Source: Candidatus Hydrogenedentes bacterium UBA2224 (GTDB lineage Bacteria; Hydrogenedentota; Hydrogenedentia; Hydrogenedentales; SLHB01). From it: a stretch of 64,000 nt of DNA. Position 1 is the stretch's first letter, and each line of letters begins with the position of its first letter. The stretch covers positions 24,248 through 88,247 of the forward strand of contig DDYW01000021.1 in the NCBI GenBank assembly GCA_002348185.1. Direction: 5' to 3'. The notes below the pieces were generated by a model. That model was not told the DNA's origin. It ran no database searches and saw nothing but the letters and a program-made list of their open reading frames with translations. Position numbers and translations under genes: made by a program. Shown in pieces: positions 16,838 to 62,500 of the stretch.

Positions 16838-19800
16838 TTAAAAGCCGGTGCACACGGCAAGGTGACCGTCTCGTGTCCCGAATACCACGGCACGTTCGCC
16901 AGGCAGGGCGAGGATCTTCGTCGGGGTATCCGGGAGCCGGCCCTGACGCACGGGCGTTCCGGCGGCGTCGAGCACCAGCAGATTTCCGTTCTCCCCGCCC
17001 ACGACAATGCACGGAGCATCGCCGCCGCCGGGCGTGATGCAGGCGAGCGTCGTGGGCACAAAAGGCAGTCGCCGCGACCAGAGTTTTTCGCAGGTGCCGG
17101 TCAACGCCACGCACAAGCGGTCGACCGTGGCCACGGCGATGTCGGGAACCCCGTCGCCGGTAAGGTCGCCGGTGTCGATATCGCGCATGTTCACATACGG
17201 GATGGCCTTGCCGGGACCGAAGCTCGCATCGTATTCCGCCGTGCCGTCCGGCCGCCACACGGTGACGCGGTTCCACACGCCGTTGATCTCCGTCATGAGC
17301 TCGGGTTCGCCATCGCCGTCGAAATCGTCGAAGAAAATGTGTTCGCGGTTCATGGCGGACCATCCGGGCACGTGGGTATGGCCTTCCGGCACGGAATCAA
17401 ATCCGCGGGGGCTGGGATCCAGCGTCGCGCTGTTGATGATACCCAGGGTGTTGGAGCCGTTGTAGCGGCGCGCGGCGAGCAGGGTGTGGGACCCGTTGGG
17501 GCCGGGAATCAGCTTCATCACGGAGACCTTGCCCCAGAATTGCGGCATGCGGCGCACGAGCCGGCCGGTTTCGTCCAGAATCTCGAGCGTGCAGGCGGAA
17601 CCCACGAACGCCATGGGCGTGCCGTCGATGAACGGCCCCGAATACAGCCCGTGAATGCCCTCGTGACCCGGCGCCGACTTGAACCAGTAGGTTTTGGCTG
17701 CGCGATAGACTTCCGGATCCATCTCCGAAACGAAGACCCACCTGCGGTTGCCGTCGCGGTCGAACGCGATGACCTTCTCGTCCGCGCACCCCGCGAGCAG
17801 CAACTGCGGTTCAGGCCACCAGTGGAGCATGCGGACGGGGCCGTCGGTCGAAAACGCCGCCACCGGCTCGCCTGAAAGCGACATCGCGTGGATGGTCTGG
17901 CCTTCGGCGGCATAAAGCCGCGTCCCGTCCGGCGCCGCGACGAGGTCCATGATCGCAGCATCGCCCGTTTTCACCGCCGTGCATTGCAGTTCGGGGAGGG
18001 CCTGTTCCGCGGCGGTCGCGGTGTCGGCCGTCTGGCCGGCATGAGTTCGGGCCTGTTCCAGGCAGGCCGCCAGCCACGCGCGCACGGCCGGAAGCATGGG
18101 GGCGGGCGCGGGGGCGGGACGCGTCTCAGGCGGCTGCGCGCTATTGGCCGAGGACGCGAGGGTCATCTCGCCGCGTGCCAGGTTCCAGTCGATGTCCATG
18201 GGTTCCGCGCTCTTAAATACCGGACTCAGTCCCGGCACGGCCAGTTGAACAACGCCTCTTCCGTAGAAATGCGTCTCCGACAGCACGGCGAACTCGGCCT
18301 CGATGCCCTCGTACGTGCCGGCGGCCGCGAGTGCGAGTTCGGGCGTCAAGAGGACGGCCGCGTTTCCGGCGAGGCGCAGGCAGGCCACCTCGGTCTCCGT
18401 CTCGGTGGGCACGCCGGTGACCAGCGAGAAGAACCGCAGCGTTTCGCCGGTGCGGGCCGGGCCGAGCCACTGCATGGCCGCTTCATACCCGTTGCGGAGG
18501 AGGGTGACGTCGGACGCGGTGCAGATCAGGGGGATGCGCGGCACCGGGGCACTGAGGGGCCGGTCGAGGCGCATCTGGTTCGGACGCTCGGGCCCGGCAA
18601 GCCAGTTGCCGCCCCGGGTCTCCCAAAGCAACTGGACCTCGAGGTTCTCGGTGTCGATGCGCGGCGTCAGTTCGTCGAGCACCAGGGCATACCGGCCCGG
18701 ACGGTGGACCAGCGCCCGCCGCCAGGAGGCGAACGGCATGCCGGGCACCTCGGCCACGGCGACGACCGTCTCGCCCAGCACCCGGCAGTGTTTGAGGGCC
18801 GCGTCCATCGCGACGGTCTTTTCGGTGAGGCCATCGGCCCGCGTGCGGAGCTGGTTCAGGTACCCTTCGAGCAGGGTGGCCCCGTCCTGCCGCAGCGCGA
18901 GGATCGCGAACGTGTGATAGGGGTTGCGGGACGCCCCGTTGAATCCGTCCAGGAGGATGAAATCGCCCGTGGCGTCAGGACGGTTGCGGTAGCTCATGAA
19001 CAGGAACGATTCGTCGAGCGGGAATCCGTTGTTCCGCCATTTCCACATGGGTTCAGGCATCGCGTGGATCCGCCAGTCGCCCACCATATCGTCCGGCGGC
19101 ACGGGCTGGAGGTGGTCTTCCGGCCAGTACGATTGCCCGAGCCGGAAGAGCGCGGTATCGACGCCCGTGCGGTTGCGGTAGGTGAGCCAGCGGCCGTCCT
19201 GCATGAGGTACGCGGCCTGGTGCAGGAACCCCACCGAGGCGTAGTGCAGCGCCCAGTCGCCGTCTTTTCCCGAAGCGAGGATTTCGAGTCCGCGCAACAA
19301 TTCCGCGGCGACGCCGTTCTCGAGGGGCACACGGTCGCCGGTCAGCAGCAGGTAGCTGAAGATGGGCGCAATGGCGGTGTCGTACCAGAACAAATTGTCG
19401 TTTTCGCCGCTGACCCAGGCGTGTTCGTGCAGCGACCGGAAATGGTTCGCGCCGTTTTGCTCGCACACCGGCCAGACGGGGTCGTCGTAATCTTTGGCGA
19501 AATACCGGCCAAGGCAATACAACGAGATGGCGGTCCACTGTCCGTGCCGCGACCCGACCTGGGAGGGGATGGCCGCGTAGGGGCCGGCATAGGCCGAAGC
19601 GATGCCGGGATGCGCGAGCTGCTGCGCGAATGCCCGGGTGACGCGCAACCGTTCGTCGTCCGTGAAGACGGGGCTCTCCTCGATGAGGTCCCAGAAGAGG
19701 ATCATGAGGTGCGCGTTGTAATGGTAGGGCCCGCCGAGGGGATTGTCCTTGTTTTCGATACGTTCCCCGTCGATTTCGGCGATCTCCGCCCTGGCTTGGG

Positions 19801-50790: not shown

Positions 50791-51005
50791 GTGGACCCTA
50801 TGGACGTCATGGACGCAATGGACGTGGATGTCCGAACGATTGCGAAGGGGTTGAACAATGTCGCCGGGCTTGTTCAACCCCCATTCGGGGGTTGGGATAG
50901 GGGGGATGCGCCCGATCCACGGGCTTCACCCGCGGCTTCTCAAATTCGACACCTTCGGTGTCGTTGGGCGGCAAGGCCGTCCACCAGGTCCACCGGGTCC
51001 ACCGG
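50791..51005. repeat. composite intergenic element: 4 x RTGGACNNN, ~150-bp core, 3 x GTCCACNNN (inverted arrays)
   Basis: Arrays 50791-50826 and 50979-51005. The core has GGGGTTGAACA 50847-57, TGTTCAACCCC 50871-81 and GGGGGTTG 50887-94. Confidence 0.85.
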
Positions 51006-51128
51006 GTCGTGCTTACGCGGCGATTCGGGAGGCAGCTCCCTTCGGGAATTCGCGCGCGTTTCGTGGTATCCTAACACCCAATTCCCATGAGCCGTTTCTG
51101 AGGTCCATCTACCGGAGGAGGTCTCTCC

Positions 51129-52253
51129 ATGGCTGCCGTGAACCACCGTCTGCTGCTTGTGCTTGCTGTTGCGCTTACGTTCGTGCTGTTCCCGGGATGC
51201 GCGCCGAAGGAGACTCCGTCCGCCGAACCGTCCGGTGCGGGCGAGCCCGCGGCTCCGGCCGAACCCGCGCCACAGCCCGAAGCGGCCGCGCCGGCGCCCG
51301 CCGCGATCGGCGACCCGGTGGCGGCGATGGCGGAGCCGCCGGCCATGCCGAAAGGGTACGGTTCGAGCGCCGAGGTGATGCTGGCCATCGGGAACGGCGA
51401 TCTCGCACTGCTCGACGAGAACCCGCCGGTGCCGGAAGGCGTGAACGAACTCGCCGGGCTCGAGTATTGCAGCATCGACGGGACGTCTCTCAAACTCGAT
51501 CTGGCGTTGCCCGCCGAGGGCGACGGGCCGTTTCCCGGCCTGATCTTCATTCATGGAGGCGCCTGGGTCAGCGGCGAACGCGAGATCTACCATCTCTATA
51601 CGTACCATTTTGCGCAGCAGGGGTACGCGGCCGCCACGATGTCGTACCGGCTCTCCGGCCAGGCCAAGTTTCCCGCGGCGGTGCAGGACGTGAAATGCGC
51701 GGTCCGGTGGATGCGCGCGAACGCCGCCACGTACAACATTGATCCCGACCACATCGCCTTGATCGGTGGGTCGGCGGGCGGCCATCTGGCCATGATGGTG
51801 GGGTACACCGCCGACGTGCCGGAATTCGAGGGCGAAGGCGGCAACCCCGGCGTCAGCAGCGCGGTCCAGGCTGTCGTCAACTTCTACGGTCCCTATGACC
51901 TCACCGCGGAGATCGCGCAGAAATCGGACGATGTGCAGGGCTTCCTGGGCGCGACCTGGGAAGAGAATCCCGACCTGCATCTCAAGGCGTCGCCGATGCA
52001 CTACCTGAACGCGGGCGATCCGCCCACCCTGATCTTCCATGGCAGCATCGACGAGGTGGTGCCGATCGAACAATCCGAACGACTTGCGGCGCGCCTCGGC
52101 GAGCTGGGCATCCCCTGCGTCTTCGAACGGTTCGAGGGGTGGCCCCATACCATGGATCTCGCCCAGCCGGTCAACGAGCGCTGCCGCTGGTTCATGTACC
52201 GGTTTTTTGAAGCGCATCTCTCGCCGAAACCGGCCGCGGGCGCCCCGCAATGA
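51129..52253 (+). CDS. alpha/beta hydrolase (carboxylesterase/lipase-type) lipoprotein
   Basis: Lipobox LFPGCA, IFIHGGAW (HGG oxyanion motif), GGSAGGHLA nucleophile elbow. GGAGGAGG box upstream. Confidence 0.85.
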   Translation: MAAVNHRLLLVLAVALTFVLFPGCAPKETPSAEPSGAGEPAAPAEPAPQPEAAAPAPAAIGDPVAAMAEPPAMPKGYGSSAEVMLAIGNGDLALLDENPPVPEGVNELAGLEYCSIDGTSLKLDLALPAEGDGPFPGLIFIHGGAWVSGEREIYHLYTYHFAQQGYAAATMSYRLSGQAKFPAAVQDVKCAVRWMRANAATYNIDPDHIALIGGSAGGHLAMMVGYTADVPEFEGEGGNPGVSSAVQAVVNFYGPYDLTAEIAQKSDDVQGFLGATWEENPDLHLKASPMHYLNAGDPPTLIFHGSIDEVVPIEQSERLAARLGELGIPCVFERFEGWPHTMDLAQPVNERCRWFMYRFFEAHLSPKPAAGAPQ

Positions 52254-52398
52254 GGATGGCCGGCGCCGGTTTGCAGGGGTTTGACCCGGGTGTGTCGCCG
52301 ATGGCTACGCCATTCTCGCGGCGGTGCTGATCGACGGGTTTCTCGAACAGGCCGAATCCACTCGCGGTTTCATCAAGGGCTATTCGTAGGAGTGCACG

Positions 52399-53349
52399 AT
52401 GCGGGTACTGGTGATGGGGGCCGGCGCGCTCGGCTCCGCGATAGGCGGATTTCTTGCGAACGCCGGGCATGCGGTCGCGCTCGTCGGCCGCCCGGCCCAC
52501 ATGGGCGCCATCGCGCGGCAGGGACTGCGCATCACCGGCATCTGGGGCGACCATCGCGTCCGTACCCTGACCGCGGCGACAGGGGTTGAAGCCTTCCAGC
52601 CGGGCGGCTTCGATCTGATCCTCATCACCGTCAAATCGTACGACACGCGGGCGGCGGTGGAGGAGGTCGCGCCTCTCGTTGACGCCGACACCCTCGTCTG
52701 CTCGTACCAGAACGGCCTGGGCAACGCCGAGATCATCGCCGAAACCGTCGGGTGGCACAGAACGGTCGGGGCGCGGGCGATCTACGGGGTGTGGCTGCCC
52801 GAACCCGGCACGGCCGAAGTGACGGTCATCGCGAATCCCACCGCGCTGGGCGTGTATTCCCAGGACGCCCCGGCCGAGCGGGTCCGCGCGATTGCGCAGG
52901 CCATGGATGATGCAGGCGTGCCTACCGTCTACACGGACACGATCGCCACCGTGCTGTGGGGCAAAGTGGCGTACAACTGCGCCCTCAACCCGCTGTCCGC
53001 CCTGCTGGATGTGCCGTACGGGGCGCTGCTCGACACCGAACACACCCGCGCCATCATGCGCGACGTCATTCACGAACTGTATGCCGCGGGACGGGCCCTG
53101 GACGTGCGCCTGGAACCTGACTCGCCGGAGGCCTACGTCACCCTGCTGTTCGAGGGACTGATTCCCCCCACCGCAAAACACTATGCCAGCATGCGCGAGG
53201 ATTTCCGGTTGAATCGACGCACCGAGATCGACGCCCTGAACGGCGCGATCTGCCGTTACGCTGAGGCCCGGGGCGTGTCGTGTCCGGTCAATACGCTCCT
53301 GACCCGCCTCGTCCATGCCCGCGAACACCAGATGGGCGTCGTGGCATAG
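52399..53349 (+). CDS. panE: 2-dehydropantoate 2-reductase (ApbA/PanE family)
   Basis: MRVLVMGAGALGSAIGGFLA, VKSYD, QNGLGN, and the typical C-terminal SM..D......TEID..NG. Confidence 0.85.
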   Translation: MRVLVMGAGALGSAIGGFLANAGHAVALVGRPAHMGAIARQGLRITGIWGDHRVRTLTAATGVEAFQPGGFDLILITVKSYDTRAAVEEVAPLVDADTLVCSYQNGLGNAEIIAETVGWHRTVGARAIYGVWLPEPGTAEVTVIANPTALGVYSQDAPAERVRAIAQAMDDAGVPTVYTDTIATVLWGKVAYNCALNPLSALLDVPYGALLDTEHTRAIMRDVIHELYAAGRALDVRLEPDSPEAYVTLLFEGLIPPTAKHYASMREDFRLNRRTEIDALNGAICRYAEARGVSCPVNTLLTRLVHAREHQMGVVA

Positions 53350-53380
53350 GCCGGCTCGGGGATCCGGGGGCGCGGGCACT

Positions 53381-53460
53381 GTGGACGGTATGGACCCGAT
53401 GGACGTTCTTGCCTGAATGACGGCGAAGGGGTCGAACCACGGCGCCGTGTTGCCTTGACC
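53381..53460 (+). repeat. truncated copy of the mosaic repeat (3-unit array plus the left part of the core)
   Basis: gtggacggt atggacccg atggacgtt, then cttgcctgaatgacggcgaaggggtcgaaccacggcgccgtgttgccttgaccccc, alignable to 50818-50882. Confidence 0.7.
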
Positions 53461-53511
53461 CCCCCTTCCCGCGGGCGCAAAATAGAGCCGAAGGGTTTCG
53501 GGTGCGATGCC

Positions 53512-54483
53512 ATGACGATTCAATGCGAATTGTGTCCCAAGAACTGCCTGATTGCTCCGGGACAGAGCGGCGAATGCCGGATTCGCGTGAACCTCGACGG
53601 CCGGCTGGTCGCGGTCACGTACGGGCGGCCCTGCGCGGTGCATGTGGACCCCATCGAGAAGAAGCCCCTGTTTCACGTGCTGCCGGGGAGCACGATCCTG
53701 TCGCTGGCCACGGTGGGCTGCAACCTTCACTGCAAGAACTGCCAGAACTGGGAGATTTCTCAGGAGAACCCCGAGAATCTGCCCGCGAAGGAACTGGCCC
53801 CCGACGATATTCCCGGTCTGGCCCGGCAGCACGCGTGCCAGTCCATCGCGTACACGTACACCGAGCCGGTCGTCTTTTATGAATATACGATGGACGGGTG
53901 CAGGCAGGCGCATGACGCGGGGCTCACCACCGTGCTGGTTACGGCAGGCTACATCAATCGCGAACCGTTCGAGCGTCTGGCGCCGTACGTCGATGCGGCC
54001 AACATCGATCTCAAAGCCATGTCCGACGCGTTTTACCGGGAGATCTGCGAGGGGAGCCTCGCGCCGGTCCTGAGCACCCTGGAGAGCGCGAAAGCGGCGG
54101 GCATCTGGGTCGAAGTCACCAACCTGGTGATCCCCACCCTGAACGATTCGGAAGCCGAGCTCCGGAACCTCTGCCAGTGGGTCGCGGCCAACCTGGGACG
54201 CGAGACCCCGCTCCATTTTTCGCGGTTCCATCCCGCGTACCGTATGAAGAACCTGCCGCCGACCCCGTCGGAAACCCTGGACCGCGCGCGGGAGATCGCC
54301 CGGGCGGAAGGGTTGTATTATGTGTATATTGGAAACGTGACGCGGGCGGACGCGGAAAACACGTACTGCTCCGGGTGCGGCGCCTTGTTACTTGAACGGC
54401 AGCGCTACACGATTCTGGAAAACAGGCTGCGCGACGGAGCGTGCCCTTCGTGCGGCACGAAAGCACACGGATTATGGACCTAG
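53512..54483 (+). CDS. amrS: AmmeMemoRadiSam system radical SAM enzyme
   Basis: CELCPKNCLIAPGQSGECRIR N-terminal Cys motif, DPIEKKPLFH, GCNLHCKNCQNW (CxxxCxxC), C-terminal CSGCG...CPSCG. Confidence 0.9.
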   Translation: MTIQCELCPKNCLIAPGQSGECRIRVNLDGRLVAVTYGRPCAVHVDPIEKKPLFHVLPGSTILSLATVGCNLHCKNCQNWEISQENPENLPAKELAPDDIPGLARQHACQSIAYTYTEPVVFYEYTMDGCRQAHDAGLTTVLVTAGYINREPFERLAPYVDAANIDLKAMSDAFYREICEGSLAPVLSTLESAKAAGIWVEVTNLVIPTLNDSEAELRNLCQWVAANLGRETPLHFSRFHPAYRMKNLPPTPSETLDRAREIARAEGLYYVYIGNVTRADAENTYCSGCGALLLERQRYTILENRLRDGACPSCGTKAHGLWT

Positions 54484-54671
54484 CGCGACGCACATTCATG
54501 TACACGGTCCTGACGGCCGCGGCCGCTGTGCTCTGTCCGGTGTTGCGCCGGGCGCGTCGGGTGCTCGTTCGCGTCCGGTATGCGGAACGGCCGCGGCGCG
54601 GCGAATGCCCGGCCGTCCTTGCGCCGTTGACGCCGGAGGAGACGGCGCGTCCCGCCAAATGGGCGGGGTAG
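54474..54671 (+). CDS. candidate small ORF (65 aa) with an RR-hydrophobic N-terminus, bridging amrS and the Memo-AMMECR1 gene
   Basis: MDLARRTFMYTVLTAAAAVLCPVL... The third codon positions are mostly G/C as in real genes here. The ATG overlaps the amrS stop. No homology recognised. Confidence 0.3.
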   Translation: MDLARRTFMYTVLTAAAAVLCPVLRRARRVLVRVRYAERPRRGECPAVLAPLTPEETARPAKWAG

Positions 54672-54707
54672 GCCGCGCCCGGAACACCGAGGTTGGGGAA
54701 AGGACCT

Positions 54708-56312
54708 ATGGCAACGCATCCGTACAGGGCCGGGGCCGGGATCATCCTGGCCGTGGCGGCGGCGGCCATCGCCGTCTGGATGGCGCGCCGCGAAGGACTC
54801 GAAGAGGCGCCGCGCGAACCCCCGCAGCAGGTGCAGGAGGCCGAGATGCCCGAACAAGCTTCACACCCGAAGGCCGTGTTTGACTCGCCTCTGGCGGGGC
54901 GATGGTATCCGGCCAGCCCGCCGGTGCTGACGGAGATGCTGGATGAGCAGCTCGCGGCCGCGGAACAGAGGCCGCTGGACGGCGTCTGCGCGCTCATTCT
55001 GCCGCACGCGGGCTACCAGTACAGCGGTCCGGTGGCGGCGTACGGATTGAAGGCGGTGCGGGCCCGGCGCTATGCCCGCATCGTAATCCTGGGCCCGTCG
55101 CACCGCGTGCCGATGCGCGGGTACGCCAGCGTGCCCGGGGCCACGCATTACCGCACGCCCCTGGGCGAGATCCCGCTCGATGTGGCGTTCATCGAGGCGC
55201 TGCTCGAACACGGCATGTTTCGGCAGGTCGCCCAGGTCGAGGACCTCGAACACAGCGTTCAGATCGAAGTGCCGCTGATCCAGCATGCGCTGGGGGCGAC
55301 GCCGCTCGTGCCCATTGTGGTGGGGCATCTCACGCTGGCGGAGTCGCGCGAGATGGCGCGCATCCTGCGCGGCCTGGTGGATAACGACACCCTCGTGCTC
55401 GTGAGCAGCGATTTCACTCATTACGGGCCCAACTACGGGTACCTGCCGTTTAAGGACGACATCCGCGCGAATCTCGAACGTCTCGATATGGCGGCGTGGA
55501 ACGCCATCGAGTCCAAGGCGCCCGGGGTTTTTGAAACCTGGGTCGAGGACAGCGGCGCCACCATCTGCGGGACCTGCCCCATCCTGGTCCTGCTCTCGAT
55601 GCTCCCCGAAGACGCCCGGCCCCAGCTGCTCAAATACGACACGTCGGGCGCCATCACGAGCGACTACGAAAACTCCGTGAGCTATCTCAGCATCGCCTTT
55701 ACCGGCGCCTGGCGGGAAGGCGGCCTCATGTCCGACAGCGCCGGCACCGCGCTGCCCCTTTCGGAGGAGGATAAGGAACGTCTGCTCCGGCTTGCCCGCG
55801 AAACCCTGCACACCTACGTCGCCGCGGGGAAAATGCCCACCCCCGAAGAGCTGGGGGTTGAGATCACCCCTGCCATGAGCCAGACCATGGGCGCGTTCGT
55901 CACGCTGCACGCGCACGGGAGGCTCCGCGGATGCATTGGCGAGATTGAGCCCCGCCGGCCCCTGTATCAGGCCGTCATGGCCAACGCTATCAACGCCGGA
56001 CTCAAGGACTATCGGTTCCCGAGCGTCACGGCGGACGAACTCCCCGAACTGGACTTCGAGATCTCCGCCCTGACGCCCCCACACCCCGTCGACGGTCCCG
56101 AACGCATCGTTATCGGCCGTCACGGCATGACCGTCGAGAAAGGCGGCCGCCGCGCCGTGTTCCTGCCCCAGGTCGCCCCCGAACAGGGCTGGGACCGCGA
56201 CACCACCCTCAACCATCTCTGCATGAAGGCGGGGTTGCCTCCGGACGCGTGGCGGCAAGGCGCCGCCTTCACGGTGTTTGAAGCCGTCGTGTTTGGCGAG
56301 GAGCGAGGATGA
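54708..56312 (+). CDS. membrane-anchored fusion of AmmeMemoRadiSam protein B (Memo family) and protein A (AMMECR1 family)
   Basis: TM helix GAGIILAVAAAAIAVWM. Memo part: ALILPHAGYQYSGPVAAYG, ILGPSH, SSDFTHYG. AMMECR1 part: GAFVTLHAHGRLRGCIGE, VFLPQVAPEQGW. GGGGAAAGGA box before the ATG at 54708. Confidence 0.9.
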   Translation: MATHPYRAGAGIILAVAAAAIAVWMARREGLEEAPREPPQQVQEAEMPEQASHPKAVFDSPLAGRWYPASPPVLTEMLDEQLAAAEQRPLDGVCALILPHAGYQYSGPVAAYGLKAVRARRYARIVILGPSHRVPMRGYASVPGATHYRTPLGEIPLDVAFIEALLEHGMFRQVAQVEDLEHSVQIEVPLIQHALGATPLVPIVVGHLTLAESREMARILRGLVDNDTLVLVSSDFTHYGPNYGYLPFKDDIRANLERLDMAAWNAIESKAPGVFETWVEDSGATICGTCPILVLLSMLPEDARPQLLKYDTSGAITSDYENSVSYLSIAFTGAWREGGLMSDSAGTALPLSEEDKERLLRLARETLHTYVAAGKMPTPEELGVEITPAMSQTMGAFVTLHAHGRLRGCIGEIEPRRPLYQAVMANAINAGLKDYRFPSVTADELPELDFEISALTPPHPVDGPERIVIGRHGMTVEKGGRRAVFLPQVAPEQGWDRDTTLNHLCMKAGLPPDAWRQGAAFTVFEAVVFGEERG

Positions 56313-59300
56313 GACCGGGCCGCGCCGCGGTCATATTCTCGCTGGGGTTCTTCGCCATCGCGGCGCAAACGCTGCTGTTTCGCCAGTTCCTGACCGCATT
56401 CGAGGGCAATGAACTCGCCCTCGGGGTGTTTTTCTGTTCGTGGCTGCTCTGGGTCACCGTGGGTGCGTGGCTGGCCCGCGCCGTGCGTCCCCTGGCCGCT
56501 GCGCTGAGCGGGCGTTTCCGGGGCATCGCGCTCCTCTATCTGCCCGCGTTCGTGGTTCAATACGTTCTGATCGGCCAAGCGCGGGAACTCGCCGGGGTGG
56601 CGCCCTACGAGCAGTTCCCGCTGCTGGCCATGATTGGCGTGTGTGTTGTTGCGAACAGCCCGGTCAGCCTGCTCACCGGCGCGCTGTTCACGTGGGCCTG
56701 CCGCTGGGCCGCCGGCGCCGGGGAGGACTCGCCGGACGTTGCCCTGACTCCCGCCCGGGTGTACATGCTGGAAGCGTTGGGGGCCGCGGCGGGCGGAATC
56801 TGGGCTACGCTGTGGCTCGCGAACGGTGTGCCGGTCGAGACCGTGTTTCTGCTGTCGGCCATCGTCGTGGTTGCCGCGGGGCTTCAGCCAAACCTCGGAG
56901 GCCTGGTGCGCGCCGCCGGCGTGGCCGCCCTGGCGCTGGCGATCGTCCTGGGCGCGGGCGAGCTTTGGTCCGCGCACACCCACCAGCGGCAATGGGGCCG
57001 TCTCATTCCCGGGGGGTACGAGGGCCGCGTCGCTACCGCGCAAGGCGAGTACCTCTACGGCGAACACGACGGGCAGTTCACCGTCATGACCTGGGGCAGC
57101 GTGTGCGAGACGCCGTTTACGCTCTCGCAGGGCGCGGAAGATGCCGCCGCCATCCTGCCGCAATGCCCGCAGGCGCGCCGCGTGCTTGTGCTGGGCGCGG
57201 GCGCCTATCCGCTGTGCACCGTGCTGTGCAGTCTGCCGCAGATTGAGCGGGTCGCCTGGTTCCATCCGGATCCCGCGTATCCGCCCCGGCTGGCGCAGTT
57301 GCTGCGCGAGCATGGGCACACCGTGCCCGAGAAGCTTCTGCCCTACGGCAGCGATGCGCGCACCTGGCTCCAGCACGCCGCTGATCAATACGATGTGGTG
57401 ATCCTGAGCCTGCCGGACACCACGACGCTCGTGCTGAACCGGTATTCGACCGCCGAGTTTTTCGCCGAAGTAAAGCGCGCCCTGTCGCCCGGCGGCGTGC
57501 TGGCCACGCGCGTGCCCGGCGGCGCCAACTACCTCGCCAGCGAATCCGCCGTTCTGGGGCTGTCGATGATGACGACCCTCGAAGCCGCGTTCCGGAACAC
57601 CGCGCTCAAACCCGGTGAATCTTCCTGGTTTTTCGCGTCGGACGGCGACAGCCTGATGAACGCGCCGATGCCCTTGGCCCGCCGCTGGATGGGCATCGAA
57701 GGCGCGGAAGCCTGGTATCCCGCCGAAGCTGTGCGCGATTTTTACCGGAGAGGCCGCGTGATGCGGCAACTCGACGCGTACCAGGCCGCCCGCGCCTCCG
57801 TGCCTTCCGACGTGCTGCTCAACACCGACCACAACCCCCGCGCGCTGCTTTTCGGCATCCTGCTGGAACTCCGGCGCGCCGGGTTGCGCCCGGCGGAGAC
57901 CGTACCGCCGCTGCTCTGGGGCGGCGTCTATCTTGTGGCCGCCGGGCTGCTCGTGGCCGCCGCGGGCCGTATCGTGTTTCTCGTCAAACACGGCGGCTCG
58001 GGCGTCCCCGCCGTCTTTGACACGCACCTGCTGATCGCAACGACCGGCCTGGCCAGCATGGCCCTGACCACCGTGCTCCTGTTTTTTTATCAGACGCGGC
58101 ACGGGGCCCTGTTTCTGCTGATCGGCCTCATCGCCGCGTTGGTGATGTTCGGCGCCTGGCTGGGAAGCCTGGTCCTGGGTCGGCTCCTGGCGCGTTGGGG
58201 CGCCGAACCCCGCCTGGCCCTGCCGGGATTGCTCGCGATACATGCCCTCGCGCTCAGCGGACTTCTGTGGATGGGCCCGGACGCGTCCGTGGGGCTCTTT
58301 CTGGCCGCGTTTTTCGTGTGTGGGCTGCTTACGGGGGCCTATTTTCCGGTGGGAGCGCTGCGTCTGGCGAATGCGGGCCAGCCGCCCGACGCTTCCGGCG
58401 CGCGGCTCGAAGCGTTTGACCACCTCGGCGGCGCGGCGGGGGCCGCCCTCACCGGGCTGGTGTTCTTGCCGTTTTTCGGCGCACCCCGCACGCTGGCCCT
58501 GCTCGCGGGCTGTCTCGCGCTGAATGTCCCCCCGCTGTTGCTGGGACGGCGTGCACGCCGGGTGCGTCCCGCGCCGGGGGACCGGTTTGACCGGCTGGTC
58601 CGTCCGGCCGCGTACACGCTGGCGACCCTCGCGGCGCTCGTGATCACGGCATCCAACATACTCGCGGTGTCCGGGACGGCACGGGAATCGGCGCAACTGC
58701 TTGACGAGGTCCGTTTGCTGGCCGGACCGGCCGCCCCGCTCGAGTCGGTGTCCACCACGCTCCCGGATGGCGCGGCCTTTACGTATTTCAAGGAAACCGG
58801 ACCCGAGGGCGAGACCGCGGGGTATCTGTTCGACACGCGCGTGCTCGCGGGCGATGTTTATGGATACGGCGGCCCGCTGGTGCTGGCCGTGTCCGTCGAT
58901 CCGGCGGGCATCGTGCGCGATTACCGCATCCTGCACTCCCTGGAAACCCCGGTGTATCTCGATTTCGTGCGGTCCTGGCGGCAGGAGTTGGTCGGGAAAA
59001 ACATCTTTGAAGCGCAACCCTTTGAGCAAGTCGACGCGCTGAGCGGGGCCACACTGACCTGCAACGCGCTGATGGCCGCCCTCGAGCAGGCCGGCCACCG
59101 GTTTGCGCTCGACGTGCTCGGCAAATCAGTGGCCCCGGGAAGCCCGGGCAGGCGGCCCGCTGGCGAGTGGACCGGCTTGGCCTGGCTCGCCGGATTGTCT
59201 CTGGCCGCCATGCTCGCGCGCCGCTGGCCCAACCCCTGGGTGCGTCGGGGCATCCTCGCGGCATCGCTGATCATCTGCGGCGGACACTTCAATGTCCAGT

Positions 59301-59866
59301 ACTCCACCCAGCAGGCCGCCAGCCTGGCGACGGGCGCTCTGCCCCCCTGGACCCTGTCCGCGCCGGTATTCCTGGTCCTCGTGCTGCCCCTGCTCACGGT
59401 TCTGTTCGGGAACTTCTATTGCGGCTACCTGTGCCCGTTCGGGGCGGCGCAAGAGGCCATGGAAGAGGTGACGCGGGGAACCGTGGCCGTCGACCCGTCC
59501 AAAGAGGTCTGGCGCTACGCGCGCGCCGTAAAATACCTGCTGCTCTTCCTGCTCGCCCTGCTGTATGCCGTGCACCGCGACGCCGCCGTGCTTCAGGCCG
59601 ATCCGTTGATCACCATTTTCAGCGGCATGCCGGGCCGGTTCGTGCTTTATCTGGGTCTCGGGACGCTGGTGCTTTCCCTGACGTTTCGCCGGTTCTGGTG
59701 CCGGAATCTCTGTCCGGCCGGGGCATTTCTGTCGCTGTGCAACGGCGTTCGCGTGTTCCGGCGGCTTCGTCCTGCCGTCCAGCCCGCGAAATGTCCCCTC
59801 GGCGTGCGCACGGGAACCGAATTCGACTGCATTTGCTGCGACAGGTGCCGCCATGAAAGCCGCTGA
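56309..59866 (+). CDS. 1185-aa fusion: polytopic membrane domain + spermidine-synthase-like Rossmann domain + second TM block + FMN_bind domain + NapH/NosR-type polyferredoxin
   Basis: FFAIAAQTLLFRQFLTAFEGNELALGV (membrane spermidine-synthase-like N-terminus). VLVLGAGAY...DVVILSLPD...LSPGGVLA. GYGGPLVLAVSVD...VDALSGATLT (flavinylation motif, about 59042-59053). YCGYLCPFG and WCRNLCPAG (CX3CP), terminal CICCDRC. ATGA overlap with the upstream stop. Confidence 0.85.
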   Translation: MRPGRAAVIFSLGFFAIAAQTLLFRQFLTAFEGNELALGVFFCSWLLWVTVGAWLARAVRPLAAALSGRFRGIALLYLPAFVVQYVLIGQARELAGVAPYEQFPLLAMIGVCVVANSPVSLLTGALFTWACRWAAGAGEDSPDVALTPARVYMLEALGAAAGGIWATLWLANGVPVETVFLLSAIVVVAAGLQPNLGGLVRAAGVAALALAIVLGAGELWSAHTHQRQWGRLIPGGYEGRVATAQGEYLYGEHDGQFTVMTWGSVCETPFTLSQGAEDAAAILPQCPQARRVLVLGAGAYPLCTVLCSLPQIERVAWFHPDPAYPPRLAQLLREHGHTVPEKLLPYGSDARTWLQHAADQYDVVILSLPDTTTLVLNRYSTAEFFAEVKRALSPGGVLATRVPGGANYLASESAVLGLSMMTTLEAAFRNTALKPGESSWFFASDGDSLMNAPMPLARRWMGIEGAEAWYPAEAVRDFYRRGRVMRQLDAYQAARASVPSDVLLNTDHNPRALLFGILLELRRAGLRPAETVPPLLWGGVYLVAAGLLVAAAGRIVFLVKHGGSGVPAVFDTHLLIATTGLASMALTTVLLFFYQTRHGALFLLIGLIAALVMFGAWLGSLVLGRLLARWGAEPRLALPGLLAIHALALSGLLWMGPDASVGLFLAAFFVCGLLTGAYFPVGALRLANAGQPPDASGARLEAFDHLGGAAGAALTGLVFLPFFGAPRTLALLAGCLALNVPPLLLGRRARRVRPAPGDRFDRLVRPAAYTLATLAALVITASNILAVSGTARESAQLLDEVRLLAGPAAPLESVSTTLPDGAAFTYFKETGPEGETAGYLFDTRVLAGDVYGYGGPLVLAVSVDPAGIVRDYRILHSLETPVYLDFVRSWRQELVGKNIFEAQPFEQVDALSGATLTCNALMAALEQAGHRFALDVLGKSVAPGSPGRRPAGEWTGLAWLAGLSLAAMLARRWPNPWVRRGILAASLIICGGHFNVQYSTQQAASLATGALPPWTLSAPVFLVLVLPLLTVLFGNFYCGYLCPFGAAQEAMEEVTRGTVAVDPSKEVWRYARAVKYLLLFLLALLYAVHRDAAVLQADPLITIFSGMPGRFVLYLGLGTLVLSLTFRRFWCRNLCPAGAFLSLCNGVRVFRRLRPAVQPAKCPLGVRTGTEFDCICCDRCRHESR

Positions 59867-60116
59867 CGTCCTGTTTCTGGTCTGCGTGGCCGCGGTGGCG
59901 GCGCTGTTTGTGGCCGCGACCCTGGCGCATACCGAAACGGCCGCCTCGCCCCCGGCCGCCCCGGCGGCGCCCGGCGGAACCGGCCGTCCCCGCGACCTCG
60001 ACCTCGAGCGTATCCGCGAAATGATCGAGCGCGGCGACTTGTCCGGACGTGAGGCGGAGTTTTACCGCGAAGCGCCCGCCGGACCGCAAAACGAAACCGC
60101 CTCCCCACCGGAGTGA
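59853..60116 (+). CDS. small single-pass membrane protein (87 aa)
   Basis: N-terminal helix VLFLVCVAAVAALFVAATLA, a Pro/Ala linker, then DLERIREMIERGDLSGREAEFYRE. It overlaps the upstream stop by 14 nt. Confidence 0.5.
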   Translation: MKAADVLFLVCVAAVAALFVAATLAHTETAASPPAAPAAPGGTGRPRDLDLERIREMIERGDLSGREAEFYREAPAGPQNETASPPE

Positions 60117-60142
60117 GGAGGCGGCTCAGGTCCGGATTCAGG

Positions 60143-62266
60143 TCACAGGATGCCGAGGGCGGCGTTGATCACCATCTGCACATCAACGGCATTTACGCCA
60201 TCCAGGTCATTCACGTCTGCGTCGCGGCCCTCGATGTCCAGCCCCAGCGCGGCGTTGATCACGAGCTGCACATCGACGGCATCCACGTCGCCGTCGCGGT
60301 CGATGTCGCACGCGGGCACGCTCACGTCGAACACGCGGGTCAGGGCGTTGTTGGCCGGGTTCGGGTCGGCCGGGACATCGCCTTCCGAGTCGGCGATGGC
60401 CGTCACTGAATAGTCTTCGCCCTTGGGAAGCGTTGCCGGCCGCGGCACCACATAGCTCGCACCGGCGTCCAGGGCGGGTACGGGGTACGTCAACGGCGTG
60501 GCGTCGCCCGTCAGTTCGATGGAAAGCACGGAGGGCCCGGCATTCCCCAGGCCCACGTTCAGAACGGTCACCTGGATCGTGAATTCTTCGTCCGGCAGAG
60601 GCGCCGCGGGAAGCAGCGTCACGGCGCTGACCGCGAGATCGGGCAGCCGGATGAGTTCGTCGGCGCCCATGTCGTAATCCGAGCCGTCGCCCGGCTCAGG
60701 CGGTCCCGTCGGGCCGTCATTGAGCCCGTCGTATCCCCGGGCGTCGCCGTCGATGTCCGTCGTGACGGCGCCGTAGGTGCTCTCACTGGCGTCGCGGCCC
60801 GTGTCCAGGCACGGCGACGTGTCCTGCAGGCGCCAGTTCAGCACTTCGTATGCGCGCGGCGCCGTGGCCGCCCCGCCCCGGGTGACGTCCGCCCAGACGG
60901 TAATGGTGGCGGCATCGTTGGCCACGATCAGGTACCCGCAGGGCGGGTCATACTGATCGACCGGCGCGACCTGCAGGAGTTGGCCCGCCAACGTGCCGGG
61001 CAGGAACGCGCCCGACTCGACGGTCACCGTGGACTGGCAGGTGGCGGCATCGTAGGCCAGCGCGCTGATCGTGCCGGAGTATCCTGGAAGAAACAGAGGA
61101 TCCGCGTCGATGTTCGCGGTGCCGGCCAGGCCGCCCGCCACGTCGTTGTAACTGTACGAGCGTGTCGACGCGTAGAAATCCATCTCATTGGGCGTGCCGT
61201 CGTCTTTGAGGCCTTCCCAGAGGATGCAGTTGGTCATGCGGAAGGCCGTGCTTTTGCCATAGAGGTTGCCGCCGGAAAACGCGGAACCGGCATGACACCA
61301 GTTCCGGCGCAGCGTGCAGTTCGTCATAATCAGATCGCCGTCGGTCCACTTGGAAATTGCCCCGCCGTAGAGCGAGGTGTTGCCGGTAAACACGCAGTTC
61401 AGGATCGTCAAGTCTCCGTCCTCGCTCGAAATTCCTCCGCCATGGCCGCTGATCTCGTTGCCCACAAACCGGCATCCGGAAAACGTGGCCGACGAATCGC
61501 CCGCCATATAGACCCCCGCGCCATCCTGCCACGCCTCGTTGCTGGCGAAGGTGCAATCACTGAACGTCAGGTCGGTCGAGGCGCCCTGGGCATTCACACC
61601 GCCGCCGTTGTCGTCAGCTTCATTGCCCGCGAAGAGGCACCGCACAATCGTGGCGGTGCTGTTCGCGGCGTACAAGCCGCCGCCGCCGGAATCCGTGGCC
61701 TCATTGTCTAGAAACCGGCAATCGCGTATTACCGCAGACGACCCGGAGAGGCCCAGACCCCCGCCACTGCTGCCCGCATTCGCCTGAAATGTGCAGTTTG
61801 AGACGGTGGGACTGGTGTTCTCGCATTGCATCCCGCCGCCCCACGACGTCGTCGTGGGCACGCAGTGCGTGATCGTAAAACCATCGATAATAGCGTTATT
61901 CGCCCCCGTTACCCCGCGGCGGGCATTCTCGCCGTCAATGATCGTCACATTGGCCTGCGGATCGCGCAGATCAAACTGGTCCGCGCTCTCGCTGCCCGCA
62001 AACCCGCCGTAGATCGCCACGTCGGTGGCCATGGCCACCACCGGACTGGCCGCACTGGTGTAGGTACCCGCGGCCACCCACACCTGGCCGCCGCCCGGGC
62101 CCGCCGCGTCCACCCCGCTTTGAATGTTTGTGAACGCCGTGGCCCAGGTGGTTCCGTCCTCCACGCCCGATACGTTGTCCGCATCGACCAGCCAAATCGC
62201 CCCCGATGCCGACAGAGAGACCGCCATTGCCGCCGCCAGACACACCGTCCATGCCGCTGCCTTCAT
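60143..62266 (-). CDS. secreted right-handed parallel beta-helix protein with a CARDB-like domain and a C-terminal dockerin-type repeat pair
   Basis: Signal peptide MKAAAWTVCLAAAMAVSLSASG. Repeated NCxFxxNxA..GGG coils. C-terminal DIDRDGDVDAVDVQLVINAALG / DVNDLDGVNAVDVQMVINAALG. Confidence 0.85.
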   Translation of the reverse strand: MKAAAWTVCLAAAMAVSLSASGAIWLVDADNVSGVEDGTTWATAFTNIQSGVDAAGPGGGQVWVAAGTYTSAASPVVAMATDVAIYGGFAGSESADQFDLRDPQANVTIIDGENARRGVTGANNAIIDGFTITHCVPTTTSWGGGMQCENTSPTVSNCTFQANAGSSGGGLGLSGSSAVIRDCRFLDNEATDSGGGGLYAANSTATIVRCLFAGNEADDNGGGVNAQGASTDLTFSDCTFASNEAWQDGAGVYMAGDSSATFSGCRFVGNEISGHGGGISSEDGDLTILNCVFTGNTSLYGGAISKWTDGDLIMTNCTLRRNWCHAGSAFSGGNLYGKSTAFRMTNCILWEGLKDDGTPNEMDFYASTRSYSYNDVAGGLAGTANIDADPLFLPGYSGTISALAYDAATCQSTVTVESGAFLPGTLAGQLLQVAPVDQYDPPCGYLIVANDAATITVWADVTRGGAATAPRAYEVLNWRLQDTSPCLDTGRDASESTYGAVTTDIDGDARGYDGLNDGPTGPPEPGDGSDYDMGADELIRLPDLAVSAVTLLPAAPLPDEEFTIQVTVLNVGLGNAGPSVLSIELTGDATPLTYPVPALDAGASYVVPRPATLPKGEDYSVTAIADSEGDVPADPNPANNALTRVFDVSVPACDIDRDGDVDAVDVQLVINAALGLDIEGRDADVNDLDGVNAVDVQMVINAALGIL

Positions 62267-62500
62267 CGTAGATCCCTTTCCCTGACTCGCAGATCCCCTC
62301 GTGTGAGCCGCACAGATCCCCAAGATGCCCCTCTAATCCACCGGAAGAGTATCACAGATGGCGCAAAAAGCGAACACGGTTTTGCCTGACCACCTGGCCC
62401 ACTGGGAGTTCGAAGGGCAGCCGTGCGACGATGGCACGCTTGTGCTTGTGAAGGCCGAAACGCTATTCTCGCCACGACCCGATGGACAGGAGAATCTACC

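Follow-up and report, generated by a model that had tools for sequence, protein, structure and literature searches.

A conserved operon places the AmmeMemoRadiSam genes beside a predicted flavin/iron-sulfur membrane conduit

Conservation of Memo and AMMECR1 extends from archaea to humans; MEMO1 has been linked to cell motility and cancer, and AMMECR1 to an X-linked developmental syndrome. Together with a radical S-adenosylmethionine (SAM) enzyme they make up the AmmeMemoRadiSam system (AmrA, AMMECR1; AmrB, Memo; AmrS, radical SAM enzyme), all components of which are soluble and cytosolic in the canonical archaeal and bacterial members. Here we analyse an operon in a 64,000-nucleotide (nt) stretch of Candidatus Hydrogenedentes bacterium UBA2224 (contig DDYW01000021.1, positions 24,248 to 88,247; this whole stretch is the window referred to below), in which amrS and a fused amrB-amrA gene are followed by the gene for an 1185-amino-acid (aa) membrane protein with flavin- and iron-sulfur (Fe-S)-binding signatures. 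In 2007, Balaji and Aravind drew attention to the neighbourhood of AMMECR1, a ring-opening-dioxygenase-like protein and a radical SAM enzyme (PMC2034487). An established biochemical function for the trio was not found in the searchable literature.

Cytoplasmic radical SAM maturases that work with periplasmic enzymes are known from the anaerobic sulfatase-maturating enzymes (anSMEs) and their sulfatases, from QhpD and QhpC of quinohemoprotein amine dehydrogenase, and from the mau cluster with MauA and the NapH-like MauN. As for electron conduits, the accessible parts of a 2021 survey of flavinylation (PMC8238504) describe flavinylated NapH-like proteins (NosR, PceC/RdhC and NapH/MauN relatives with an N-terminal FMN_bind domain) as modular, with NosR, PceC and others serving periplasmic redox enzymes. 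In what is accessible of the survey's text and supplements, and of a 2024 follow-up, Memo, AMMECR1 and spermidine synthase are not mentioned. The initial annotation of the window, made by a model from the sequence and a list of open reading frames (ORFs), had proposed that the trio is tied to a flavin/Fe-S membrane fusion protein, and it knew of no description of such a link. The searchable literature contains no prior link of Memo or AMMECR1 to FMN_bind, NapH or spermidine-synthase proteins; outside it lies Burroughs et al. 2019 (J Biol Chem 294:10211), which reportedly extended the genome contexts of Memo and would be the likeliest place for a prior mention.

The ORF list and a reading of the junctions confirmed the five same-strand, overlap-packed ORFs of the initial annotation at their original coordinates:

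53512–54483, + strand: amrS, AmmeMemoRadiSam radical SAM enzyme, 323 aa (TIGR04337, Pfam Radical_SAM)
54474–54671, + strand: small conserved ORF, 65 aa (60 aa in most relatives), its start overlapping the amrS stop (family profile)
54708–56312, + strand: Memo-AMMECR1 (AmrB-AmrA) fusion, 534 aa (TIGR04336, TIGR04335, Pfam Memo, Pfam AMMECR1)
56309–59866, + strand: conduit fusion, 1185 aa (domains listed below)
59853–60116, + strand: tail ORF, 87 aa, with a transmembrane (TM) helix at nt 59868–59924 and an acidic segment

The overlap between amrS and the small ORF comprises 10 nt (ATGGACCTAG), the start codon of Memo-AMMECR1 at 54708 is preceded by a Shine-Dalgarno-like GGGGAAAGGA, Memo-AMMECR1 and the fusion share an ATGA overlap (56309–56312), and the fusion and the tail ORF overlap by 14 nt (59853–59866). 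Overlapping start/stop junctions are not peculiar to the window, as they recur in two of the related loci described below (L084 and L085). The region is one translationally coupled operon in the order amrS, small ORF similar to proteins with a twin-arginine translocation (Tat) signal, amrB-amrA, conduit fusion and tail ORF.

Profile searches with TIGRFAM and Pfam models bore out the domain calls. AmrS scored 399.3 bits against TIGR04337 (cut-off 220), and Memo-AMMECR1 202.8 bits against TIGR04336 (cut-off 26) and 172.7 bits against TIGR04335 (cut-off 99); the corresponding values were 177 bits for Pfam Memo (PF01875; cut-off 27, 4.7e-52) and 183 bits for Pfam AMMECR1 (PF01871; cut-off 25, 3e-54). 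As in the described AmmeMemoRadiSam systems, AmrA, AmrB and AmrS are all above the curated cut-offs, co-located and intact in their motifs, and the gene fusion of AmrB with AmrA is likewise a known arrangement. What sets this locus apart are two extra conserved small proteins and the 1185-aa membrane protein, which combines flavin, Fe-S and spermidine-synthase-fold domains.

This gene order is conserved well beyond the window. Full-length homologues of the fusion (1150–1400 aa) number about 95 and come from Hydrogenedentota, Planctomycetota, Verrucomicrobiota, Lentisphaerota and Elusimicrobiota. For a survey of gene neighbourhoods, an alignment of 27 fusion homologues (A1) was used to collect 80 loci, one genome per species. 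Roughly 35 of them hold full-length fusions, the remainder being ordinary NosR/NapH loci that served as controls; neighbours were sought by tblastn with the window proteins. The order amrS, Memo-AMMECR1, fusion is collinear in 16 loci (L003–L005, L007–L010, L012, L013, L015, L016, L020, L024, L032, L034 and L035) and again in L084, L085, L087 and L088, which brings the total to about 20 independent loci. These span at least six phyla (Hydrogenedentota, Planctomycetota, Kiritimatiellota, Desulfobacterota-type, Nitrospirota and other lineages), and many anaerobic groups of bacteria are among them. Two further loci are cut off upstream, and there Memo/AMMECR1 still abuts the fusion (L011, L022); layout variants comprise divergent arrangements (L021, L023) and one with Memo-AMMECR1 downstream of the fusion (L041). 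None of the trio genes was found in the approximately 40 control loci with NosR/NapH only. In the reverse direction, three of three signal-bearing Memo-AMMECR1 genes, picked without reference to the fusion, directly precede a fusion gene, and two small-ORF relatives located on contigs of megabase length belong to the same four-gene operon with 4-nt overlaps. The flanking genes are different at every locus, and the proteins of the module are 30–45% identical across several phyla. A chance juxtaposition is rejected by this survey with its NosR/NapH-only controls, and the proposed tie between the trio and the fusion thereby gains firm footing. One locus on a 2-Mb contig (L086, 8001–13538) consists of Memo-AMMECR1 and then the fusion, with no adjacent amrS or small ORF and with a polyprenyl synthetase gene about 3 kb upstream. 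Since both genes persist there without an adjacent amrS, Memo-AMMECR1 and the fusion form the tightest pair.

The radical SAM enzyme carries its cluster motif CNLHCKNC (CX3CX2C) at residues 70–77 (nt 53719–53742) and has additional Cys pairs, an N-terminal CELC and a C-terminal CSGC...CPSC. Because its orthologues all begin with M-x-[VI]-Q-C-E-L-C-P-K, the ATG at 53512 can be taken as the start of amrS. No export signal was detected on the window copy nor on any orthologue examined, and AmrS is read as the cytoplasmic component of the system. Among characterised enzymes, the profile searches place it closest to the PFL-AE-type activases, which act on proteins. A recognition domain for ribosomally synthesised and post-translationally modified peptides (RiPPs) or a SPASM domain was not recognisable among its Pfam and NCBIfam matches.

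A different compartment is suggested for Memo-AMMECR1. The protein begins with a helix (residues 5–29, nt 54720–54794) and a disordered tether (residues 30–55), followed by the Memo domain (nt 54876–55712), a hinge and the AMMECR1 domain (nt 55755–56309). The AlphaFold2 model (predicted local distance difference test, pLDDT, 87.7) shows the same lone helix, disordered tether and two domains joined by a hinge. The catalytic signatures PHAG, GPSH, DFTH, ICG, RGCIG (407–411) and DYRF (434–437) are intact, C287 is kept, and conservation of these signatures, in the Memo as in the AMMECR1 domain, reaches at least 97% across 120 orthologues; the protein is predicted to be catalytically competent. A strict lipobox pattern, i.e. 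an n-region with Lys or Arg, a hydrophobic h-region, [LVI][ASTVI][GAS]C and hydrophilic sequence past the Cys, is found in 26 of these 120 close orthologues, most of the others having an N-terminus with Lys or Arg plus a hydrophobic stretch. Lipoboxes among the orthologues read, for example, LISC, FVSC, LVSC or LTSC, each with a hydrophilic linker behind, and Sec-type cleavable signals occupy the same position elsewhere (e.g. L012, L021, L024 and L041). When the 150 closest representatives at 50% identity are considered, 31 have a lipobox, 71 another hydrophobic extension and 26 no extension at all; the extension-less proteins (P0373, P0376, P0382, P0388 and others) are presumably cytosolic. 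The window copy has no lipobox and carries an anchor-type helix instead.

Because the orthologues bear lipoprotein or Sec signals in the same N-terminal segment, we conclude that Memo-AMMECR1 of this clade most likely faces the periplasm. The initial annotation had called the protein membrane-anchored. The N-terminal helix supports this, whereas mere anchoring does not capture what the signals of the orthologues imply. With Memo-AMMECR1 likely periplasmic while AmrS is predicted to be cytoplasmic, the trio would be split across the membrane. It is important to note that this differs from the canonical systems: with one component that bears an anchor or export signal and probably works in the periplasm, the system as a whole would span the membrane.

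The conduit fusion is built from two homologous seven-TM repeats, each trailed by a probably periplasmic domain, with an Fe-S module last:

56309–56953, + strand: seven-TM repeat 1, residues 1–215 (AlphaFold2 helices, hhalign, positive-inside pattern)
57011–57898, + strand: spermidine-synthase-like domain, residues ~235–530 (Foldseek, PDB alignments, motif comparison)
57902–58678, + strand: connecting helix TM8 and seven-TM repeat 2, residues 532–790 (AlphaFold2, hhalign, weak MFS_1)
58730–59116, + strand: FMN-binding domain of the RnfG/NqrC type, residues ~808–936 (Pfam FMN_bind, profile against RnfG/NqrC)
59156–59866, + strand: NosR/NapH-like five-TM Fe-S module, residues 950–1185 (Pfam Fer4_5, invariant Cys)

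Its AlphaFold2 model has a pLDDT of 84.6 and a predicted TM-score (pTM) of 0.82. An hhalign comparison identified residues 3–224 as homologous to residues 570–791 (91% probability, E=1e-6); in this register TM7 pairs with the RnfG-like helix, and the helix 534–558 is an extra connector. The positive-inside pattern of repeat 1 places the N-terminus inside. A true transporter of the major facilitator superfamily (MFS) is not supported, as MFS_1 reached 29.6 bits against a cut-off of 33.4 and the protein shows two units of about seven helices with a soluble domain and an extra helix between them rather than a 6+6 arrangement.

As the initial annotation had stated, the fusion holds an FMN_bind domain with the motif DALSGAT, followed by NapH/NosR-like CX3CP motifs; Pfam and the motif positions agree on this. 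FMN_bind (PF04205) scored 44 bits (cut-off 22) at residues 852–928, and Fer4_5 (PF12801) 49.2 bits (cut-off 22) in two stretches. DALSGAT lies at residues 909–915 (nt 59033–59053) and conforms to the ApbE target motif [D/N]xx[S/T]GA[S/T], with G913, A914 and T915 invariant in the 27 homologues. The A1 profile matches the RnfG chains 9eri_G, 8ahx_G, 8rb9_G and 7zc6_G (E of about 1e-12 to 1e-9) and the NqrC chain 7xk3_C. The RnfG match spans both the membrane anchor and the FMN domain, the last helix of repeat 2 being the equivalent of the N-terminal anchor of RnfG. Since the match includes the anchor, helix 762–786 is assigned an N-in/C-out orientation, which puts FMN_bind outside. As in RnfG and NqrC, the FMN-carrying threonine is invariant; in contrast to them, the domain resides within an 1185-aa protein and is not a subunit of an ion-pumping complex, and there are no other Rnf or Nqr genes nearby.

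In the Fe-S module, CGYLCP occupies residues 1038–1043 (nt 59420–59437) and CRNLCP residues 1131–1136 (nt 59699–59716), while the C-terminal cluster motif reads C1162...C1174-x2-C1177-x2-C1180 (nt 59792–59848). All motif Cys are invariant in A1, five TM helices surround the CX3CP motifs, and positive-inside counts over the same homologues assign the two CX3CP motifs, like the Cys-rich C-terminus, to the inner side, as in NosR. The protein falls under the operational definition of a flavinylated NapH-like conduit given in the accessible parts of the survey, with PF12801 and PF04205 above cut-off and TM helices (PMC8238504). It also shares with these conduits a predicted periplasmic FMN_bind domain with an [S/T]GA[S/T] ApbE motif, two CX3CP motifs, a cytoplasmic C-terminal Cys cluster, and ApbE genes nearby in several loci. 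Nevertheless, it falls far short of the equivalog cut-offs for NosR and NapH. The NosR model (NF046105) gave 56.1 bits against a cut-off of 1000, and the NapH/MauN models TIGR02163 and NF007013 gave 29.6 against 213 and 30.1 against 234, in each case with only the C-terminal part aligned; RnfG likewise showed only weak, sub-threshold similarity. Further differences to NosR and NapH are that the fusion has a single C-terminal CxxCxxC-type motif, that its module sits behind two seven-TM repeats and a spermidine-synthase fold and is followed by a TM helix and an acidic tail, and that the partner is Memo-AMMECR1 instead of a respiratory reductase or oxidase.

The homologue search of the 64 kb confirmed the absence of an ApbE gene from the window that had been reported earlier. 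Related loci encode ApbE immediately behind the fusion (L013, L034), shortly before amrS (L004, L035), nearby (L033) or 6.5 kb upstream of the module (L085). As ApbE genes thus occur in or beside the cluster elsewhere, the predicted ApbE-dependent flavinylation of the fusion is independently supported.

Residues ~235–530 form a complete aminopropyltransferase fold, with an N-terminal β-hairpin domain and a Rossmann domain. Foldseek returned TM-scores of 0.6–0.68 (E=7e-8) to 1uir, 3anx, 3o4f and 6bq2, and the profile match to 3anx had an E value of 1e-21. However, the SAM pocket is degenerate: GAGAY (296–300) stands in place of GGG[D/E]G, the loop that binds decarboxylated SAM, H319 in place of the ribose-binding acid, and S367 in place of the catalytic Asp, i.e. 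the Asp of D-[SL]-[ST]-D-P. D321 and D362 are invariant, while the positions of GAGAY, H319 and S367 vary across the fusion clade. Of the transferase fold proposed initially, the fold therefore holds on the evidence of AlphaFold2 and Foldseek, whereas the activity does not: a working aminopropyltransferase is rejected because the glycine loop and the catalytic Asp are lost, and the domain is unlikely to be a functional transferase, judging from these residues. From the helix parity and the positive-inside pattern of both repeats, the domain probably lies in the periplasm, on the same side as FMN_bind, and the decay of the SAM pocket fits such a placement. The membrane spermidine-synthase-like proteins (PRK03612, and NF037959 for fused MFS/spermidine synthase) display the same succession of TM block, aminopropyltransferase fold and TM block, although PRK03612 gave only 36.9 bits on the fusion against a cut-off of 472. 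They differ from the fusion clade, in which the glycine loop, the ribose-binding acid and the catalytic Asp have been lost, the domain is probably periplasmic, and FMN_bind and a NapH module have been appended.

There are also shorter relatives of graded composition. Those of 700–850 aa (P0095–P0120) comprise only a TM block, the spermidine-synthase-like domain and a second TM block; with a better kept SAM pocket (GGGxx, VELDP, DGR and often the Asp) they belong with the membrane spermidine-synthase-like proteins. Others of about 980 aa (P0080–P0082) have FMN_bind and no Fer4_5 module. This gradation suggests that the conduit was built stepwise. In one planctomycetotal locus (L085, regions 17021–18183 and 1438–2466) a gene for a pyruvoyl-dependent arginine decarboxylase and an arginase/agmatinase-family gene, both of polyamine synthesis, are found within about 2.5 kb after the module, with the ApbE gene 6.5 kb upstream. 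This single case may be a coincidence, or it may hint that the spermidine-synthase-like domain binds a polyamine.

The two small ORFs, noticed in the initial annotation as members of the operon, proved to be conserved parts of the system and not incidental companions. The first has a twin-arginine-type N-terminus, RRTF (nt 54486–54497), then a hydrophobic stretch and a very basic segment, and ends in KWAG (W-x-G; nt 54657–54668). Clustering of ORFs over 28 loci yielded only four conserved families, one of which is this ORF between amrS and Memo-AMMECR1. In the family alignment (A2) R-R-x-F, P46, W63 and the terminal G65, and with the last two the C-terminal W-x-G, are invariant, and [Y/F]-P-G is nearly so; where the relatives usually read M-T-R-R-K-F-[LIV]-x-K-L, the window copy has A-R-R-T-F-M. 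The family amounts to 568 clusters in public data, mostly of exactly 60 aa and without names except for one that NCBI calls a twin-arginine signal protein. The window ORF matches its own family profile with E=1.6e-20, while tblastn with it gave nothing, and the gene caller used for the contig had skipped it. A spurious ORF in high-G+C DNA is rejected on the basis of the clustering and the family profile. Every collinear locus contains the small ORF beside a same-strand amrS; it was not found in the layouts of L021, L023 and L041, nor in L086, where amrS is not adjacent. The small ORF thus tracks with amrS. It matches no Pfam or NCBIfam family, including TIGR01409 and Pfam TAT_signal, and comparison with the Tat signal pattern ([S/T]-R-R-x-F-L-K, a moderately hydrophobic h-region and a basic c-region) revealed the invariant R-R-x-F, a hydrophobic stretch and a basic segment, but no clear AxA site.

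The 87-aa tail ORF at the other end corresponds to the split-off C-terminus of longer homologues and is a natural variant. In about 61 of 82 full-length homologues an extension homologous to it is fused to the conduit according to the alignment, and 18 homologues stop 3–5 residues past CxxCxxC, like the window protein. By tblastn, most loci have a tail match behind the NapH part, some of them in frame and others on an ORF that overlaps it; L003, L004, L020, L032 and L087 share the split with an overlapping start. For these reasons, i.e. the 18 homologues that end alike and the five loci with the overlap arrangement, a frameshift error as the origin of the 1185/87 split is rejected. The family motif, G-x-P-R-D-V-D-M-x-R-L-x-x-L-I-x-x-G-x-L-S-D-x-E-A-x-[F/Y]-Y, lies behind the TM helix and a variable linker; in the window it reads RDLDLERIREMIERGDLSGREAEFY (nt 59991–60065) and is located within the acidic segment. 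No Pfam or NCBIfam family was found for the tail. Its L-x-x-L-I-x-x-G-x-L-S-D-x-E-A-x-[F/Y]-Y may be akin to the short SHOCT-type motif at the C-terminus of many membrane proteins, although the Pfam search gave no such match. The tail is acidic, and the C-terminal half of the small ORF product is strongly basic.

Taken as a whole, we propose that the operon encodes an extracytoplasmic AmmeMemoRadiSam variant that is wired to the membrane or cytoplasm by a flavinylated conduit, with AmrS as the cytoplasmic maturase, and we assign this reading a probability of about 0.5. The Fe-S module and the covalent FMN would form a path for electrons across the membrane, comparable to those of NosR, PceC and RnfG. 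At one end of this path would be the quinone pool or a redox partner in the cytoplasm, at the other the Memo-AMMECR1 enzyme facing the periplasm, and the flow could run one way or the other; a passage of electrons between the conduit and Memo-AMMECR1 is what we infer. Memo-AMMECR1 would act on a periplasmic or envelope substrate, which may be held or presented by the spermidine-synthase-like domain and the seven-TM repeats. Lacking an export signal and dependent on SAM from the cytoplasm, AmrS would act on a protein target prior to export, either the small twin-arginine protein translated with it or the precursor of Memo-AMMECR1. Comparable maturations are performed by anaerobic sulfatase-maturating enzymes and by QhpD. 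As for mechanism, the anSME, Qhp and mau systems resemble this operon in having a cytoplasmic radical SAM enzyme beside exported proteins, a small polypeptide with an invariant Trp and a NapH-family protein. However, the likeness is one of mechanism, and AmrS is without a SPASM domain.

Several points weigh against this proposal. The anchor of the window Memo-AMMECR1 looks uncleaved and is flanked by Arg on both sides, so that its orientation is deduced from the orthologues. AlphaFold2 draws residues 693–737 of the fusion as one helix, where a spermidine-synthase-like domain on the same side as FMN_bind would need two crossings. The small protein is very basic past its hydrophobic stretch and shows no clear cleavage site of the AxA type, which leaves its predicted fate uncertain. 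Export, flavinylation and electron transfer are all predicted from sequence, and the maturase role of AmrS is drawn by analogy. A radical SAM enzyme that would be separated by a membrane from its two partners departs from the all-cytosolic trio and calls for a special explanation. Finally, two loci, one from a genome of Lentisphaerota and one of Verrucomicrobiota, have a fusion gene (L006, 10001–13591; L017, 10001–13585) and no amrS, Memo or AMMECR1 within 10 kb. Because of these two loci, the link between trio and fusion is strong but not obligatory.

Among the alternatives, one is centred on the small protein as a peptide substrate. AmrS would modify its C-terminal K/R-W-x-G (or the YPG) in the cytoplasm, Tat export would follow, and Memo, with its ring-chemistry fold, and AMMECR1, fed by the conduit, would complete either a redox cofactor made from the peptide or a modified peptide for secretion. 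Parallels are offered by PqqA/PqqE, MftA/MftC, QhpC/QhpD and the Trp-derived cofactor of MauA, whose cluster includes the NapH-like MauN. The translational coupling of the small ORF to amrS, its presence in every collinear locus and its absence where amrS is not adjacent on the same strand are in line with this idea, as are the size of its family (568 clusters), the fixed length of 60 aa with invariant R-R-x-F, P46, W63 and terminal G65, the resemblance of AmrS to protein-acting activases of the PFL-AE type, and the weak match of the fusion to the NapH/MauN model TIGR02163. However, the canonical trio is widespread without a known peptide of this kind, and therefore its core substrate is unlikely to be this peptide. 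In addition, the small ORF is missing from L021, L023 and L041, AmrS shows no recognisable RiPP-recognition or SPASM domain in its Pfam and NCBIfam matches, and a structural role is just as conceivable for the peptide, which would then be a small subunit comparable to the small Tat-signal proteins beside formate dehydrogenases. We regard this explanation as unlikely, albeit with a small real chance of being right. A new peptide-derived redox cofactor made from the invariant Trp of the small protein would be less far-reaching than the fully periplasmic scenario considered next.

A more radical alternative moves the entire trio to the periplasm. AmrS would fold with its clusters in the cytoplasm and hitchhike through the Tat system on the small twin-arginine protein, and the fusion would supply both electrons, which would pass through Fe-S clusters to a covalent FMN in place of flavodoxin, and the handling of SAM or its products by the seven-TM repeats and the SAM-fold domain. 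PFL-AE-type enzymes receive their electrons from the FMN protein flavodoxin. This scenario would account for all the odd accessory domains together. AmrS has no signal of its own, yet its stop codon overlaps the start of a protein with a Tat motif; the predicted topology turns Memo-AMMECR1, the FMN domain, the tail and probably also the spermidine-synthase-like domain to the outside; and the basic region past the hydrophobic stretch of the small protein would fit Sec-avoidance by a Tat-type signal. On the other hand, we know of no periplasmic radical SAM enzyme and of no periplasmic SAM pool, the SAM pocket is degenerate in exactly the fusion clade, and the MFS similarity stays below cut-off. 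A mature part of about 30 residues would make a very small carrier, L021 and L023 have amrS with neither the small ORF nor a signal on AmrS, and L086 keeps Memo-AMMECR1 and the fusion without an adjacent amrS. The scenario is improbable, and the same slim odds attach to the claim that follows from it, that the operon would be the first radical SAM-dependent system working outside the cytoplasm, with Memo-AMMECR1 acting on an envelope substrate.

Doubtful to a similar degree is a picture along the lines of the initial annotation, in which the trio would act together on the cytoplasmic face, held by an N-out/C-in anchor, and exchanges electrons or substrate with an outward-directed conduit. The canonical trio, and AmrS for certain, is cytosolic; the Arg-Arg-Glu of MARRE behind the anchor of the window protein could keep the C-terminal domains inside by the positive-inside rule; and the cytoplasmic position predicted for the Fe-S motifs of the conduit makes a cytoplasmic partner geometrically possible. 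Yet lipoprotein signals occupy the same position in 26 of 120 orthologues and 31 of 150 representatives, and Sec-type signals in others, and homologous catalytic domains are unlikely to lie on opposite sides of the membrane in orthologous operons. Moreover, a long disordered tether rich in Pro, Glu and Ala is typical of lipoprotein linkers. A fusion protein that is NosR-like, works independently in respiration or transport and only shares an operon with the trio in one lineage is almost excluded, for although L006 and L017 carry it apart from the trio and flavinylated NapH-like conduits are modular according to the accessible parts of the survey (PMC8238504), the order and the overlapping junctions persist at 30–45% identity across several phyla, the flanking genes differ at every locus and the association occurs in none of the roughly 40 control loci.

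As to the surroundings of the operon, a weak promoter-like site precedes amrS by about 30 nt:

53455–53483, + strand: promoter-like site, TTGACC, 17-nt spacer, CAAAAT (9 of 12 consensus positions)

Searches of positions 51000–61500 gave no Rfam elements, riboswitches or known RNAs. An ApbA/PanE-type (ketopantoate-reductase-like) gene (52399–53349, + strand) ends 160 nt upstream of amrS; it is rejected as a member of the system since it adjoins the module in no other locus, and it is probably unrelated. Downstream, the operon is closed by a convergent gene (60143–62323, − strand) for a 726-aa protein with a right-handed β-helix (NosD/Beta_helix), CARDB and C-terminal dockerin-like D-x-D-x-D-G repeats. 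Around it are genes for a GDSL lipase, a carboxylesterase, a BNR/esterase protein and a sugar ABC transporter, which suggests a polysaccharide-degrading lifestyle. Long antisense ORFs lie opposite the genes of the + strand (56120–59098, 992 aa; 54861–56258, 465 aa; 52192–54231, 679 aa; all − strand). They are rejected as genes, being shadow ORFs of high-G+C DNA whose apparent homologues elsewhere are the antisense of conserved genes.

No reaction has been established for Memo or for AMMECR1, and since 2007 the three-gene system of bacteria has posed a riddle. The operon offers the system a redox partner in the form of a predicted flavinylated Fe-S conduit, which argues that the reaction of Memo-AMMECR1 is a redox reaction with an external supply or sink of electrons. 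It also offers the radical SAM enzyme a candidate partner, be it a protein or a peptide, and points to a defined cellular compartment. For the ApbE-flavinylated extracytosolic electron-transfer systems, Memo-AMMECR1 would represent a new type of client, and the fusion protein appears to be a case in which the spermidine-synthase fold has been reused, apparently without its catalytic residues, outside the cytoplasm.

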